A stretch of 64,000 nt of DNA from Escherichia coli (lineage in GTDB: Bacteria > Pseudomonadota > Gammaproteobacteria > Enterobacterales > Enterobacteriaceae), in the NCBI RefSeq assembly GCF_030013595.1, contig NZ_CP122770.1; one strand, given 5' to 3'. Both the position numbers and the translations under genes were made by a program. This document shows, in pieces, positions 35,496-48,816 of this stretch. The notes beneath the pieces are model-generated. The model searched no databases. It had not been told where the DNA came from and saw nothing but the letters and a program-made list of their open reading frames with translations. The stretch's first letter is position 1. Every line of letters begins with the position of its first letter.

Positions 35496-37067
35496 TTACT
35501 GAGAGGTCAGATCAACTTTCCAGGGCAACAGATCGCGTACCCGGTTTGCCGGCCAATCCTGGATATGCTCAATGACGTAACGCAGCCATTTTTCTGGTTC
35601 CACATTGTTCAGACGGCATGTGCCGATCAGCGAGTACAACACCGCCGCATGTTCGCCACCGCTGTCGGAACCCGCGAAGAGCCAGTTTTTCCGGCCTACG
35701 GCCACTCCCCGTAAGGCGTTCTCTGCGATGTTGTTGTCGATTTCCACCCAGCCATTACTGCAGTACACGTTCAGGGCCTCCCACTGTTTCAGCAGGTATG
35801 CGAACGCTTTTGCCGTATCCGAGTGACGCGACAGTGTTTTCATCTGTTCCTGTATCCAGTCATACAGTGACTGCATCAGTGGAGCCGCTCTGGCTTTTCT
35901 TGCTGCCAGACGCTGTTCTGCTGAACATCCCCGGACTTCTGCCTCGATGACATACAGTTCACCGATACGCTGCAGGGCTTCCGTGGTGATGTCGGTTGGC
36001 ACTCTTGCATGCACATCGTGGATTTTTCTCCGGGCATGGGCCATACACGCGGCTTCCGTTATTCTGCCGGATTCGTATAACGCCCGGTAACCACCGTAAG
36101 CATCTGCCTGAAGCACACCGCTGTAACCGGCCAGGTGATTCTGTGGATGGATACCTTTCCGGTCCGGGCTGTACGCGAACCAGACCGCCGGGGGCATCTG
36201 TGAACCGGCGTTACGGTCATCACGGACATAGACCCACAGCCGGGCAGTTCTTGTTTTACCACTGCCCGGCTCCTGGACCGGAACGGGGATATCATCCGCA
36301 TGGACTTTACCGGGCATCAGCACATACTGGCGCAGCACGTCATACAGCGGCTCCAGCAGTTCAGCAACGGCACCGGTCCAGCGCCCCAGCGTGGCGCGGC
36401 TCAGTTCCACGCCCTGACGAAGGTATATTTCTGACTGGCGGTATAACGGCAGATGGTCTGCATACTTCCCGGTGACGATATGAGCCAGAAGCCCCGCTCC
36501 GGCATAACTGCGTGCAATGGGTTTTGAAGGTACTGGTGCCTGCACGATATGGTCGCACCGGCAACAGGCCAGTTTCGGACGTTGTGTTTCGATAACCTTA
36601 AAAGCGCTGCTGATAAGCTCCAGTTGCTCTGACACATCACACCCCAGAGGACTGAGGTCACCACCACAGGCCGGGCAGCATTCCTCTTCCGGCCGGATGA
36701 CCCGGGTTTCACGGGGAAGTGAGGCCGGTAACGGCTTACGGGCTGAAGACTGGCGCAGGGCGGATGGCAGTACCGGGTCATATTGCTCATCCAGCGTTTC
36801 CGCCATTTCTTCCTGAAGTGCGCTGATTCGCTCCTGGGCTTCCTGTATCTGCCGTTCGGTTTTAGCGCGAAGTTTTTCTGAGCTTTTACCGAACTGCATG
36901 CGCTGCAGTTTCGCAACCAGCGCCTTCAGCCGGTTGATTTCGGAAGCATAAGCCGCCACCCGCTGTGAGAGCAGGCGGTTGTATTTCGCCATCTGGCGGA
37001 TGGTGTCCTGTTGCGTCTGCAACAGTGCCCGCAGGCGGGCATTCTCATGAGCAAGTGAGGTGTCCAT
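35496..37067 (-). CDS. IS66-family transposase TnpC
   Basis: 523 aa; coiled-coil N-terminus, CxxC zinc motifs, DDE region. Confidence 0.9.
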
Positions 37068-37086
37068 ATCCTCACTTTACAACGGG

Positions 37087-37434
37087 TTATATGCGGATGC
37101 CAGCGCGTTCCGTTCGTTTCGGGTGCTTCCAGTCGATGCCTTCGAGAAGCATGGACAACTGAGCCGGAGTAAGGTGAACCTTTCCATCGCGGGTGACCGG
37201 CCAGACGAAGCGGCCCCGCTCCAGGCGTTTGGTGAAGAGGCACAGTCCGTCACTGTCAGCCCACAGCACTTTTATCTGGTCACCCCGGCGTCCGCGGAAG
37301 ATGAACAGATGCCCGGAGAACGGGTCATCCTTCAGGACGTTCTGAACTTTTGAGGCCAGGCCGTTAAAGCCATTTCGCATATCGGTGATACCGGCAACCA
37401 GCCAGATACGCGAACCGGCAGGGAGAGATATCAT
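37087..37434 (-). CDS. IS66 Orf2
   Basis: 115 aa; LFIFRGRRGDQIKVLWADSDGLCLFTKRLERGRF typical of IS66 Orf2. Confidence 0.85.
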   Translation of the reverse strand: MISLPAGSRIWLVAGITDMRNGFNGLASKVQNVLKDDPFSGHLFIFRGRRGDQIKVLWADSDGLCLFTKRLERGRFVWPVTRDGKVHLTPAQLSMLLEGIDWKHPKRTERAGIRI

Positions 37435-38084
37435 CAGTGGCTGCTCCCTTTCATTTCGCGGATAAGTGTCTGTAATAACGCCGGTGTCAGTTCACCTTTC
37501 AGCCTGAGAGTTCCGGCCGGCAGAACCAGCTCGCAGCACAGACTGTCTGGCAGTGTATTTATCTGTTCAGGTATCTGCACTGGTGCCGGGATTTTATTAT
37601 CCGGCTCCGGAGTTAACGTCACGGGAAGTAGCGATGTTTCATGTTCGCCGGGCGGTTGCAGGCCACCGTTACGCCAGAGATGCCGCCAGTTAAAGAGCAG
37701 GTTATCGTTAATTCCATTCTCTCGAGCTATTTGTGCGACACAAGCACCGGGTAAAAGAGTTTGCTGAACCAGTCTCCATTTAAACTCCGGTGAAAATCGG
37801 TTCCGGCGGGGTTTCTCTGCTTTCACAGGCTGAGTCACGGTCGGGGCTGAAGGGTATCGCCCCGGGAAAAGAGCCCGGGCCAGTTGCCCGCAGGAATATT
37901 CACCGGAAAGAGGCCAGTCAGTGAATACCTGGTGAAATCGCCTCACCAGAGAAAAAATGGCGGTTTTGCTGACACCGGTCTGCGCAGAAATGCGCGGGTA
38001 CGACAGTGACTCGTCAAATCTCAGCTGTAGCACACGCAGGATCAATTCCGGATTGTCTGCCAGTACCGCTTTTCGTGCATTCAT
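37434..38084 (-). CDS. IS66 Orf1 (HTH accessory protein)
   Basis: 216 aa immediately upstream of Orf2 with overlapping stop/start. Confidence 0.8.
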   Translation of the reverse strand: MNARKAVLADNPELILRVLQLRFDESLSYPRISAQTGVSKTAIFSLVRRFHQVFTDWPLSGEYSCGQLARALFPGRYPSAPTVTQPVKAEKPRRNRFSPEFKWRLVQQTLLPGACVAQIARENGINDNLLFNWRHLWRNGGLQPPGEHETSLLPVTLTPEPDNKIPAPVQIPEQINTLPDSLCCELVLPAGTLRLKGELTPALLQTLIREMKGSSH

Positions 38085-42589: not shown

Positions 42590-43183
42590 ATGGGAAAAAA
42601 TCAGGAAGAAAGGAAAACTCCCGTCATTGTGGTGAAAAAACGTCGTACTTTTTCGCCACCGTCCTTATCCGAAAAAACAGATATTATCGCACCTGTATTT
42701 ACTGAACAGACGGCAGAATCAGCCCCCGCCGGAATAAATTCATCTGCCGTCGAAACACATATCCCCGAAGCGCCAGCCAGGAAGAAGAAAAAGAAAAGAC
42801 ACCGTTTTCCACGTCCCTCCCACTGGACCCGTGAGTATACTCACGAGTGCGTGGAAAAAATAAAGGCCCTGTTTCCTCATCTTCGTGCTGAAGGTGGTGG
42901 ATTTATTCCCCTGAAAATTGGCATAAGCAATGATATTTCGGCATTTCTGGCAGAAAGCCCGGATACAGAACTGTCCATGGACGAATGGTTCTGTGCAGTG
43001 TCCTGCATCACCTCCCGCCGCGTATATCTGCAGCGGACCTCTGTCGCCGGCGTCCCTCGTTATGGGCTGGATGGTCATCCCGATGGGCAGGTCTCAGAAA
43101 CTGAAGCACAGAGTGCTGTTCAAAGACTGGCGATAATAGAACAACGGTGGCTCAGGATGAAGGAACGGCAGACTGAGCAATAA
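42590..43183 (+). CDS. ProQ/FinO-domain RNA-binding protein
   Basis: 197 aa; basic N-terminus, FinO-like central region; assignment from recall. Confidence 0.55.
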   Translation: MGKNQEERKTPVIVVKKRRTFSPPSLSEKTDIIAPVFTEQTAESAPAGINSSAVETHIPEAPARKKKKKRHRFPRPSHWTREYTHECVEKIKALFPHLRAEGGGFIPLKIGISNDISAFLAESPDTELSMDEWFCAVSCITSRRVYLQRTSVAGVPRYGLDGHPDGQVSETEAQSAVQRLAIIEQRWLRMKERQTEQ

Positions 43184-44888: not shown

Positions 44889-45170
44889 TTATGGCCACTT
44901 CTGTGCGGTATGCAACACGCGCAGGACATACACTTTTCCCCACTGGCTGTCGACCTCATAAACCAGAACAAAATGGGGGTGAATAACCAGTTCCCGGGTT
45001 CCTTCCACACGACCGTTGCGACCTTTATACGGCTGCCCGGCCAGGCTGCTGGCTGAATAACCAATCCGTTCGTCCAGTTCAATGGCGGCCATCAGGTTCT
45101 GCTCCGCAATGTACTCACGAATGCGCTTCCTGTCCTGGCTGGCCAGCATGGTCCAGAATATCTCCATCAT
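44889..45170 (-). CDS. RelE/ParE-family toxin
   Basis: 93-aa ORF overlapping upstream antitoxin ORF by 4 nt. Confidence 0.7.
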   Translation of the reverse strand: MMEIFWTMLASQDRKRIREYIAEQNLMAAIELDERIGYSASSLAGQPYKGRNGRVEGTRELVIHPHFVLVYEVDSQWGKVYVLRVLHTAQKWP

Positions 45171-45436
45171 TTATCGGAAACCTTCCTGCTCATTTCATCC
45201 CGCCATGCAGCGGCAGAAGATTCGACCATGTCATGGGGAAGCACATCGCCGCGCTCGAGTTGCTGACGTCCTGCCGCAACCTGGTCACGGAACCAGGTAT
45301 TATGCTGCCGTTCAACGGTCTGGCGCATAAAATCCCGAATTAACTGAGAGCCATTACGGTCCATGCTTTTTGCAGCGGCCATAAAAGCATCCTTCAGTTC
45401 AGCGTCGATTCTTAAACTCATATTAACCTGTGCCAT
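45167..45436 (-). CDS. RelB/DinJ-family antitoxin
   Basis: 89 aa, RHH-like N-terminus (MAQVNMSLRIDAELKDAFMAAAK). Confidence 0.7.
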   Translation of the reverse strand: MAQVNMSLRIDAELKDAFMAAAKSMDRNGSQLIRDFMRQTVERQHNTWFRDQVAAGRQQLERGDVLPHDMVESSAAAWRDEMSRKVSDK

Positions 45437-45799: not shown

Positions 45800-46340
45800 C
45801 AACATTCATAATTAAAAGCGATGTTGTTCCCGCCCTTCGGGCGGGGGCGGCCTCGCTTTTCAGTTATGAGGGGTGGGCACGGTGCTGCGTTTGTGTGGTG
45901 TTTTTTATTCCTGATGTTTTCGCGGTGGTTTCAGAACGGTGAGGTTCGGGGCCCGCGCGTTAGCGTGGGAGGTGCTTTTAGATTCTGAGCGGCGCGGCCT
46001 TGGCCGCTGCAAGCGAAGGCCTCTTTGTGTTTGTTCACGGTGGTTTCAGAGATAAAGACTTTCCCTGCGGCGAAGCAACGCAGGGGATTAAATAATGGGG
46101 TTAAGACTATATTGCAGGTTTGCTGTTTCAGGTTTGCAGCTTCTTAAAGTTTTTTGTTTGCGGATTTATGTGGATAACTGAAACAACGTGGCCACGTTCT
46201 GATGACTGATGCGTGGTTTTATGGGCAGATATGCCCCTCTGAGGGGATTTAAGGTGATTACTGCGGATTTTGGGCTGAGCGGAACCAGCGCCGAAAGCCC
46301 CGGAGGGGCTGGTGATGATTCAGTGCTGAGGGAATGGTGC
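45800..46340. other. Candidate replication origin region downstream of repZ
   Basis: Position as in IncI/IncB replicons; GC hairpins cccgcccttcgggcggg and cggcgcggccttggccgctg; no coding signal. Confidence 0.4.
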
Positions 46341-46343
46341 TGT

Positions 46344-47375
46344 CTAGTGCGGCGGTGGGGCAGCCAGCGTCAGTTCAAGCTGACGCAACTCCCTGATGGC
46401 CAGTCGCTTCAGATGGTCATCGGAACAAAAATAGGCTTCATCCGGCGGCAGACGCTTCCTGAGATATTCTGCCATCTCATGAATCTGCTGGTCGGCAGGC
46501 AGTTTCTTCAGGCGTCTGGCGCGCTTACTGGCTGCTGCTTTCGCACGACGGTGTTTCAGCGCATCCTGACTGCGCTGCAGATACCAGCGTTTTCTGGCCG
46601 CATGTACGGAGATATCTTCATCCTCACGCAGAACACCTTCCCGAATGAGCTGCTGGCGGATTTCACTTTCACGCAGTCGTTTCTGCTGCTGTTCGTGAAG
46701 TTTTACCATGTCGACGCCCAGCATCTGCCAGCCTGCCGGTGTTATCCAGACGTAACGAGGCAGACGCTGGCGGGTTTCACGGTCCCACAGGGTTTCATCT
46801 GAAACACCCAGCACACCAAAACGTACCTGTTCGGCCAGCAAACGGGAAAGGCGGGAGACCGTCACTTCCAGTTCCGGAATAACCTTCCCCTTGCTGTCTT
46901 TCGGGCTGATTTCTCTGGCCAGACGGGAAACACTCATGCCTACGGTATGTGTGCCCGCATCACTGAAGCTGACCAGAACCGGCCAGACGGCATCGAGGAG
47001 GCGTTGTTTTTCCGGACGGAAAGCATATTTGCGACCGGCATACGTTCGTTTCTGCACGTAAAAAGGATGCAGAGACATGTGCATGCGCAGGCTCTGCTCG
47101 CCGGTCACCGGGTCCTTTTTCACCAGACGGTTGTAGGCGTGCCCGAGCTGCCCGCTCAGCGCCTTATAGCGCTCAGGACGATACCAGGACGGATTTTCGC
47201 ATTTGGGTTTGGTGGAGTGCTCACCACGACGACGCTTCGTGCGCTTCCTTTCCGGTTCAACCAGGAAAGTGGTCGCCCTTCCCGCTTCATAGTCTTCCCA
47301 GAAACGGATCTGCTCTTCGGGTGCTAACTGACTCCAGTGTACTGCGTTATATGGAGTATTCTTCAGACCTGCCAC
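46344..47375 (-). CDS. repZ: RepZ replication initiator (IncI1/IncB RepA family)
   Basis: 343 aa from GTG at 47375 lying within end of repY; track ORF extends 15 codons upstream. Confidence 0.85.
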   Translation of the reverse strand: MAGLKNTPYNAVHWSQLAPEEQIRFWEDYEAGRATTFLVEPERKRTKRRRGEHSTKPKCENPSWYRPERYKALSGQLGHAYNRLVKKDPVTGEQSLRMHMSLHPFYVQKRTYAGRKYAFRPEKQRLLDAVWPVLVSFSDAGTHTVGMSVSRLAREISPKDSKGKVIPELEVTVSRLSRLLAEQVRFGVLGVSDETLWDRETRQRLPRYVWITPAGWQMLGVDMVKLHEQQQKRLRESEIRQQLIREGVLREDEDISVHAARKRWYLQRSQDALKHRRAKAAASKRARRLKKLPADQQIHEMAEYLRKRLPPDEAYFCSDDHLKRLAIRELRQLELTLAAPPPH

Positions 47376-47452
47376 AAGCTGTCGCTTATGGCGGAGCGAT
47401 TGTGCCGTGTATTTATACACTGCACAGGGTTGAATCTCTGGTACGGTTTCAT
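47363..47452 (-). CDS. repY: RepY leader peptide (29 codons) coupled to repZ translation
   Basis: ATG at 47452, stop at 47363 overlapping repZ start; MKPYQRFNPVQCINTRHNRSAISDSLWQV. Confidence 0.65.
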   Translation of the reverse strand: MKPYQRFNPVQCINTRHNRSAISDSLWQV

Positions 47453-47464
47453 TATACTTTACCC

Positions 47465-47536
47465 GTATTCTGTGAGGCCCCCACTATCTTTCGTCGTTCC
47501 GCCAAGTTCGTAAGAAAGATAGTGGGGGTTTTCCTT
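47465..47536 (+). ncRNA. inc: Inc antisense RNA (copy-number control), approximate
   Basis: 14-bp perfect stem (47476-47491 / 47515-47528), loop with CCGCCAA (mRNA loop UUGGCGG), T-rich tail on plus strand. Confidence 0.55.
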
Positions 47537-47815
47537 TTATGGCTTCCGGAACATCTTCAGTCTTCTGACTTACTGCCCGTACATGCCATCTCTCCTGAAT
47601 GCCTTATGGCGCATTCTGCCGTCCGGCTTTCGCCGGTTTGCTCCACAGAGTGCCACTCTCTGCACAGCTAATAACAGCCGAAATATACCCGCTTTACGTT
47701 AATTTGAAAAGCATTACAACGATCTCTTCTCTTCCAGTGCCTCCTCACTGATACCTCTAATAAGTTAATCTTGACCTACGTCAAAAAAATAAAATCTATT
47801 TTTAAAAGCAGATTT

Positions 47816-47973
47816 TTCTGCTTTAGATCTTTCTTTTGGATTAAAAGATCGACTTTTGTCCTACTCACGATCATTTATCTTACAACCGATCTACCTAACA
47901 GAATAATATTCTGTTTTAATGCAATTAAACGATCTAAATAACCTTTAAAAAATCATTTTGTAGATCATTCGAT
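47816..47973. promoter_or_regulatory. Cluster of seven GATC sites in AT-rich region between replicon and traA
   Basis: GATC at 47816, 47837, 47869, 47888, 47931, 47963, 47970. Confidence 0.5.
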
Positions 47974-48527
47974 CGTAAATAGAATAATTCTTAGATGATA
48001 AAACCATTTGTTACACAACCCGCCAATTGTGTAACAACAGCCTCTACAAGAGCATATTTGTTCATATGTTCGTCAGAACTGCGGATTGTCTGGACGAGGG
48101 TCAGACACCGTTTCGTGCATATGGACCAGCATGTTCGAACGCCACAAAGCAGAAGCATCATGCCTGGATCGCTTCGGCGCGGAGCGTTAAGTTTTGACGC
48201 TTTTTTGTATGTTTTTTAAGCTGTTAGTTGACTCGGTGCGTTATACTAAGTACCCTTTACTGGTCACAGGCAAAACTGTGATCGGGCGTAGGAACCCGCG
48301 TAGTCATCGTCGGCGCAGAAGTTAATTTCTTCATTTGGCGTCGTTTTTTGCCATACCATAAAGACAGGAACTTGTATTTCTTGTCGTCATCTATGGTAGC
48401 TCAGGCGGGGCAGGCATTAGCCTGGCCGGTTTCCGATGACGCCGGTATTCCTACCCCCGTCTGGGCTATCACCAATGAGCGTAGGAACTCGGTGATAGCG
48501 TTTTTAGTTGTCATCGGAGACCTTTGC

Positions 48528-48816
48528 TATGTCACCTCAACTGATACAGAAACTCCCGGCCATCACTCTGTTGGAAGGCATGTTTCCCGAGCTATCAACA
48601 AACCAGCTTAAAGTCTGCGTTTTTTACGCAATGGGTGTTCCTTACGACGCCATTGCTCAGAACTGTCGGCTTTCTCCCGAAACGGTACGAACCTACCTGA
48701 AGCGAAGCCTGAAGAATTTAAATCTGGAAGGATATGATGCACTTCGCTCTGCTGTGCTGATGCGAACTTTCGTTTTCATGATTAGCAATACAGCTAAAGA
48801 AAACGAAAAAATGTGA
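48528..48816 (+). CDS. traA: TraA-like LuxR/GerE-type HTH regulator
   Basis: ATG at 48528 with GGAGA RBS; C-terminal HTH (LSTNQLKVCVFYAMGVPYDAIAQNCRLSPETVRTYLKRSLKNL). Confidence 0.55.

Follow-up and report, generated by a model that had tools for sequence, protein, structure and literature searches.

The segment at positions 46344-47536 of the window (the whole stretch of 64,000 nucleotides of Escherichia coli DNA that was analyzed) is almost certainly the replication and copy-number control unit of an IncI1 (I-alpha) conjugative plasmid, working as it does in ColIb-P9. The system is a classic, experimentally characterized one, and its mechanism yields nothing new here; a refinement is that here an I1-alpha control region precedes an initiator whose body resembles that of R621a (IncI-gamma). 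Its genetic context fits an IncI1-type conjugative plasmid, with traABC, pil genes, a shufflon, yagA, and yacAB. The DNA of the module is common to thousands of sequenced plasmids (2,750 matching plasmid records); the whole 1.85-kb replicon is matched at an identity of at least 99% by 34 plasmid records, and a Rep protein at least 99% identical is encoded by 570. The features of the module and of its neighborhood are collected in Table 1.

Table 1. Features of the replication module and associated elements (positions are those of the window)
Feature	Position	Strand	Description or basis
FopA/YafB-like ProQ/FinO-domain protein gene	42590..43183	+	Pfam PF04352, 48.9 bits
Perfect DnaA box TTATCCACA	46169..46177	-	Pattern and composition; putative part of the origin
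repZ (PGAP name repA), replication initiator	46344..47375	-	Begins at GTG 47375; 343 codons; last base of the stop codon at 46344
repY leader peptide ORF	47363..47452	-	29 codons plus TGA, in a different frame from repZ
Structure III hairpin	47363..47399	-	Predicted fold
PK-repZ (RF01087), pseudoknot of the repZ regulatory region	47388..47536	-	Rfam match, full length
Hairpin predicted within repY, lying between structures I and III	47401..47426	-	Inverted repeat and folds
Inc antisense RNA gene	47430..47538	+	Promoter-like site, hairpin 47478-47528, U-rich tail 47529-47538
Structure I of rep mRNA (Inc RNA target)	47478..47528	-	Inverted repeat, folds, PK-repZ structure line
Candidate rep mRNA promoter TTTTCA-17-TATATT	47682..47710	-	Consensus scan only

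The sequence elements of the module, their geometry, their predicted folds, and their identity to the model system can be read directly from this DNA. Comparison with Rfam returned a match to PK-repZ over model positions 1-150 of 150, with a score of 194.5 bits (gathering score, 44) and an E value of 4.4e-46. Furthermore, alignment with R64 (NC_005014) and ColIb-P9 (NC_002122), the comparison that the original prediction had proposed as its check, revealed base-for-base identity from 47635 to 47260; over the longer interval 47720..47280, differences were found only at 47657 and 47636, far upstream. ColIb-P9 and R64 thus share with the present plasmid the same Inc RNA, UUGGCG loop, repY, CGCC element, hairpin III, and GUG, as well as the same lengths of repY (29 codons) and repZ (343 codons) and the same 13-nt overlap between them.

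The original prediction described a perfect 14-bp hairpin with a CCGCCAA loop and a T-rich tail on the plus strand, and interpreted it as the antisense Inc RNA. The hairpin is present and its arms (47478-47492 and 47514-47528) are 100% complementary; however, the stem comprises 15 bp, with 21 nt between the arms. CCGCCAA occupies the center of this 21-nt apical part of the plus-strand hairpin, but in the predicted fold a C-G pair closes a terminal loop of six nucleotides, CGCCAA. The corresponding apical loop of structure I, which lies upstream of repY, is 5'-UUGGCG-3' (47505..47500) when read on the mRNA strand, with GGCG at 47503..47500. The T-rich tail was confirmed as TTTTCCTTTT at 47529-47538, directly after the plus-strand hairpin. 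The assignment to Inc RNA is in line with the identity of the segment 47455-47545 to ColIb-P9 and with a promoter-like site, TTGAAT-17-TATACT (47430-47458), which was found by a promoter scan to precede the hairpin on the plus strand. Only two promoter-like sites were detected in 47300-47800, compared with 0.6 on average in shuffled sequences. The plus-strand RNA folds with a predicted free energy of -32.9 kcal/mol (z = -6.4), and none of 200 shuffled sequences was as stable. We estimate that the 5' end of the Inc RNA lies at about 47456-47466; the best fit of the nucleotide numbers used in FopA probing (G46, U53, C54, U56, and A57) places +1 near 47456, which is inside the predicted -10 hexamer. 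The Inc hairpin was not flagged in a terminator scan that permits loops of 3 to 8 nt only, which is a limit of the tool and not evidence of absence. Judged by its identity to the model system, the Inc RNA would be transcribed here, repress repZ, and confer incompatibility with IncI1 plasmids.

The start of repZ was mapped using NZ_CP044960, a 99.9%-identical plasmid with PGAP annotation, whose annotated initiator start corresponds to the GTG at 47375 and yields 343 codons. The mechanically derived repZ ORF (47420..46344, GTG start, 358 amino acids) is 15 codons too long, exactly the over-extension that had been predicted from the sequence. Rather than pointing to a different start, the geometry of pESBL and the published account of GUG initiation (PMC4705826) agree with the PGAP position: in the IncI1 plasmid pESBL, RepY spans 36448-36537 and RepZ spans 36525-37556, again a 13-nt overlap (PMC4288162), and rep translation in ColIb-P9 and its relatives begins at GUG, with the GUG and a weak Shine-Dalgarno sequence of ColIb-P9-type rep genes being masked by stable secondary structure (Asano review, PMC4705826). 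The repY ORF has the 29 codons originally proposed and encodes MKPYQRFNPVQCINTRHNRSAISDSLWQV; its DNA is identical in ColIb-P9 and R64. Its stop codon (47365-47363) ends 10 nt past the last base of the repZ GTG, also as claimed, so that repY and repZ overlap by 13 nt. In pESBL, transposon insertions in repY are rare (PMC4288162).

The original prediction also held that this arrangement implies translational coupling and a pseudoknot-type switch, a reading now supported by the identity to ColIb-P9 and R64, the PK-repZ match, and the predicted folds of the leader. In structure III, CCGCCAUAAGC is predicted to pair with GCUUGUGGC(A)GG, burying both the CGCC element (47393..47390) and the repZ GUG (47375..47373), with CGCC pairing to the GUGGC(A)G region and the repY UGA (47365..47363) located at the base of the hairpin. 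The CGCC is separated from the repZ GTG by 14 nt, so the element expected near the repZ ribosome-binding site is in place, and the leader folding suggested as a second check gave the anticipated picture, with CGCC paired in the hairpin that masks GUG and GGCG exposed in loop I. The minus-strand segment 47430..47355 folds with a predicted -31.0 kcal/mol (z = -4.2), and the 206-nt leader folds into the same three hairpins (z = -5.5); in both cases, none of 200 shuffled sequences was as stable. The hairpin inside repY is presumably "structure II" of the ColIb-P9 literature. Read from the sequence, the complementarity of GGCG in loop I to CGCC can be extended to 7 bp (UGGCGGA with UCCGCCA). The predicted pairings are further supported because R621a keeps one stem pair of structure I through a change on both sides (47521/47485), and because the IncB system, modeled in Rfam as PK-repBA, has pseudoknot partners that differ in sequence, namely, UUGGCCGG (UUGGCcGG in the loop) and CCGGCC (distal).

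Because the control sequence is identical and the PK-repZ match is full length, the mechanism described for ColIb-P9, comprising leader-peptide coupling, a CGCC/GGCG pseudoknot, and competition by Inc kissing (PMC4705826), would apply here by analogy with experiments on that identical sequence. The minus-strand rep mRNA would carry repY and repZ, with hairpin III locking the weak repZ ribosome-binding site, the GUG, and the CGCC. A ribosome translating repY and terminating at the UGA at the base of hairpin III would open this hairpin; the freed CGCC could then pair with GGCG in the loop of hairpin I, and the resulting pseudoknot would hold the repZ start (Shine-Dalgarno sequence and GUG) open for the ribosome to reinitiate at GUG. 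The Inc RNA, a constitutive plus-strand antisense transcript, would track plasmid copy number in its concentration. Its CGCCAA loop would kiss the UUGGCG loop and block the pseudoknot directly, and an extended Inc duplex would later cover the repY ribosome-binding site (Shine-Dalgarno sequence), so that repY, too, is switched off. The pairing of Inc is probably sped up by a FopA-type chaperone with a FinO domain, whose gene lies at a distance of 3.2 kb.

Several related systems share this logic. The IncB plasmid pMU720 (repBA/RNAI) and the IncL/M plasmid pMU604 belong to the same class, with an antisense RNA, a leader peptide, and a pseudoknot-dependent rep gene that starts at GUG (PMC4705826); the IncB model PK-repBA (RF01089) falls just below threshold on the present sequence (41 bits versus 45). 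In pESBL-EA11, an IncI1 plasmid of E. coli O104:H4, the lengths of RepY and RepZ and the 13-nt overlap are the same, as judged from the published table, and so is the traA-Hft-repY arrangement; RepZ of that plasmid was reported to be 95.6% identical to RepZ of R64, which is close to the 95% identity to ColIb-P9 RepZ found here (PMC4288162).

Two readings that do without a pseudoknot switch were weighed against the ColIb-P9-type mechanism. In the first, the module would be a CopA/tap/repA system of the IncFII (R1) type that relies on simple translational coupling with no activating pseudoknot. R1 indeed works by a shared logic of antisense RNA, leader peptide, and coupled rep gene: CopA likewise inhibits translation of the leader peptide, to which rep translation is coupled. 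The R1 CopA-tap-repA system is not known to use an activating pseudoknot. A CopA-like match (RF00042) was detected on the plus strand, and Pfam IncFII_repA reaches nearly its threshold on RepZ (22.7 versus 22.9). However, the CopA match is weak, at 38.2 bits far short of the gathering score, which is 60, as against 194.5 bits for PK-repZ; moreover, the module has both the GGCG/CGCC pair and hairpin III, and its sequence matches ColIb-P9 exactly, a plasmid whose need for the pseudoknot has been demonstrated (PMC4705826). We consequently rejected this reading as highly improbable. According to the other, the hairpin would do no more than terminate transcription, or be a palindrome that arose by chance, and the 29-codon ORF preceding rep would be equally fortuitous, as short ORFs are plentiful in the mechanical ORF list. 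That the elements lie far beyond chance follows from the PK-repZ E value of 4.4e-46 and from the folding z-scores of -4.2 to -6.4, with 0 of 200 shuffled sequences as stable in each case; the identical sequence in the model plasmids and the scarcity of transposon insertions in repY of pESBL (PMC4288162) argue in the same direction. The chance reading is effectively refuted, and we give it practically no weight.

A more specific question concerns which member of the I complex the replicon represents. RepZ is 99% identical (339/343) to RepA of R621a, an IncI-gamma plasmid whose replicon has the same gene layout, but only 95% identical to RepZ of ColIb-P9 (325/343; 18 substitutions), with the substitutions clustering in 47160-46760 and 46560-46460. 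In a sliding comparison with 100-base segments, the segment 47560-47461 had no differences from R64 and nine from R621a; the leader and the beginning of repZ were of I1-alpha type, whereas 47160-46760 and 46560-46460 were of R621a type. The exchange point of this mosaic appears, from the aligned sequences, to lie around 47260-47160. RepZ is R621a-like and the Inc RNA is that of I1-alpha, and the replicon is therefore a common recombinant one. The designation "IncI-type" given in the original prediction can thus be made more precise, as far as the sequence indicates: the Inc determinant is I1-alpha, and RepZ is of the R621a (I-gamma) type.

It could be argued from the same data that the replicon is functionally IncI-gamma (R621a type) and compatible with R64 and ColIb-P9. 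The near identity of RepZ to R621a RepA, the middle of repZ (47160-46760), which is much nearer to R621a than to R64, and the MOB-suite label IncI-gamma/K1 for the 99.9%-identical plasmid NZ_CP044960 all favor that view. The MOB-suite label, however, is explained by the R621a-like RepZ, even though the Inc determinant is I1-alpha. In this family, it is the antisense RNA that sets incompatibility (PMC4705826; PMC10286972). Here, the Inc RNA matches that of ColIb-P9 in every base, whereas the Inc RNA/structure I region of R621a differs from it at eight positions in the stem and apical region, and between 47635 and 47260 the leader shows no difference from those of R64 and ColIb-P9. An I-gamma-type Inc RNA sequence was not encountered in the module, and the incompatibility determinant is that of I1-alpha. 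A functionally IncI-gamma replicon is thus very unlikely, although somewhat less so than the two readings above. Within the preferred reading, an I1-alpha-controlled replicon, copy number and origin recognition may nevertheless follow R621a; such R621a-like quantitative behavior is possible because the body of RepZ is of the R621a and not of the ColIb-P9 type.

The module had been called complete. All of the elements listed for it are indeed present, but the candidate rep promoter, the putative origin, and the fopA-like gene lie outside 46344-47536. The DnaA box TTATCCACA is located about 170 bp downstream of repZ in a stretch of 39% G+C, the expected place for an origin; judged by pattern and composition, the box is probably part of one. 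Further downstream, CTGAAACCACCG was noted by eye twice, at about 45920-45935 and 46030-46045. The FopA-like protein is 91% identical to the ProQ/FinO family protein of ColIb-P9. FopA binds Inc and makes Inc-repZ pairing about sevenfold faster in vitro (PMC7491321). Because FopA is a reported chaperone of the Inc RNA, the fopA-like gene would, by analogy, belong functionally with the copy-control module in spite of the 3.2 kb between them.

Other observations concern the wider neighborhood. The interval 47701-48000, which has a G+C content of 22 to 33% and separates the candidate rep promoter from the Hft/traA region, contains eight GATC (Dam) sites, compared with one per 460 bp window-wide and never more than four in other 300-bp stretches; one conceivable role is Dam/SeqA-dependent control of rep or tra transcription. 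A gene for a ParE-family toxin (93 amino acids, Pfam PF05016) and an overlapping upstream gene of 89 amino acids at 44889-45436 on the minus strand correspond to the yacA/yacB toxin-antitoxin pair, which annotations of related plasmids place downstream of rep. Rfam matches to group II intron domains were also found on the plus strand at 19706-19855 and 21928-22004 (D1-D4-7, 121.7 bits; Intron_gpII, 55.2 bits), and this pattern of matches points to the putative insertion of a group II intron, about 2.3 kb long, into the plasmid.

Upstream of traA, a full-length Rfam match to C4 antisense RNA (RF01695) was detected at 48389-48476 on the plus strand (77.5 bits versus 45), 53 nt upstream of the traA start codon (ATG 48529). 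Its second inner hairpin has a loop (48428-48441) that shows 14 nt of complementarity (12 Watson-Crick and 2 G-U pairs) to 48509-48522, a stretch that includes the traA Shine-Dalgarno sequence GGAG. For a further unpaired segment, UUCCUAC (48448-54), there are two complementary GUAGGAA sites, one downstream (48481-87) and the other upstream (48288-94). These complementarities were obtained by a direct search for complementary stretches; duplex folding against the flanks unfolds the whole RNA. We take the layout to resemble that of the c4 system of phage P1 immI; a literature search found no paper linking C4 to IncI plasmids. The C4-like RNA falls inside the published Hft region of pESBL, in which transposon insertions derepress traA about 50-fold and deletion of the whole region abolishes traA expression (PMC4288162; PMC5801416). 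Over 48200-48850, exactly three sites set the derepressed R64-drd11 apart from the window, ColIb-P9, and R621a. The first, 48400, falls within the stem of the C4-like RNA, and the second, 48490, lies 14 nt beyond that RNA on its 3' side; the third, 48703, turns traA codon 59 from CGA into TGA. These sites fit the three drd11-specific changes previously described as X1 to X3, of which X3 truncates TraA (PMC5801416).

For the module itself, the value of the analysis is one of annotation only. The repZ start is fixed at GTG 47375 (343 rather than 358 amino acids), and repY and the Inc RNA gene are added, both of which are omitted by automatic pipelines (the PGAP-derived table of NZ_CP044960 lists repA only). 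The plasmid should behave as IncI1 despite a Rep-based typing as IncI-gamma/K1. The chimeric pattern itself is seen in the sequence; any functional or evolutionary significance beyond that already appreciated is speculative. It is possible, but we consider it doubtful, that such wider significance attaches to this natural recombinant, whose I-gamma initiator is under an I1-alpha cassette (Inc RNA, repY, pseudoknot, and the first ~40 codons of repZ). Rep-protein-based and Inc-RNA-based typing tools disagree on such plasmids, and if the wider significance is real, a cassette swap, rather than point mutation, could let plasmids of the I complex change their incompatibility while keeping a matched initiator and origin.
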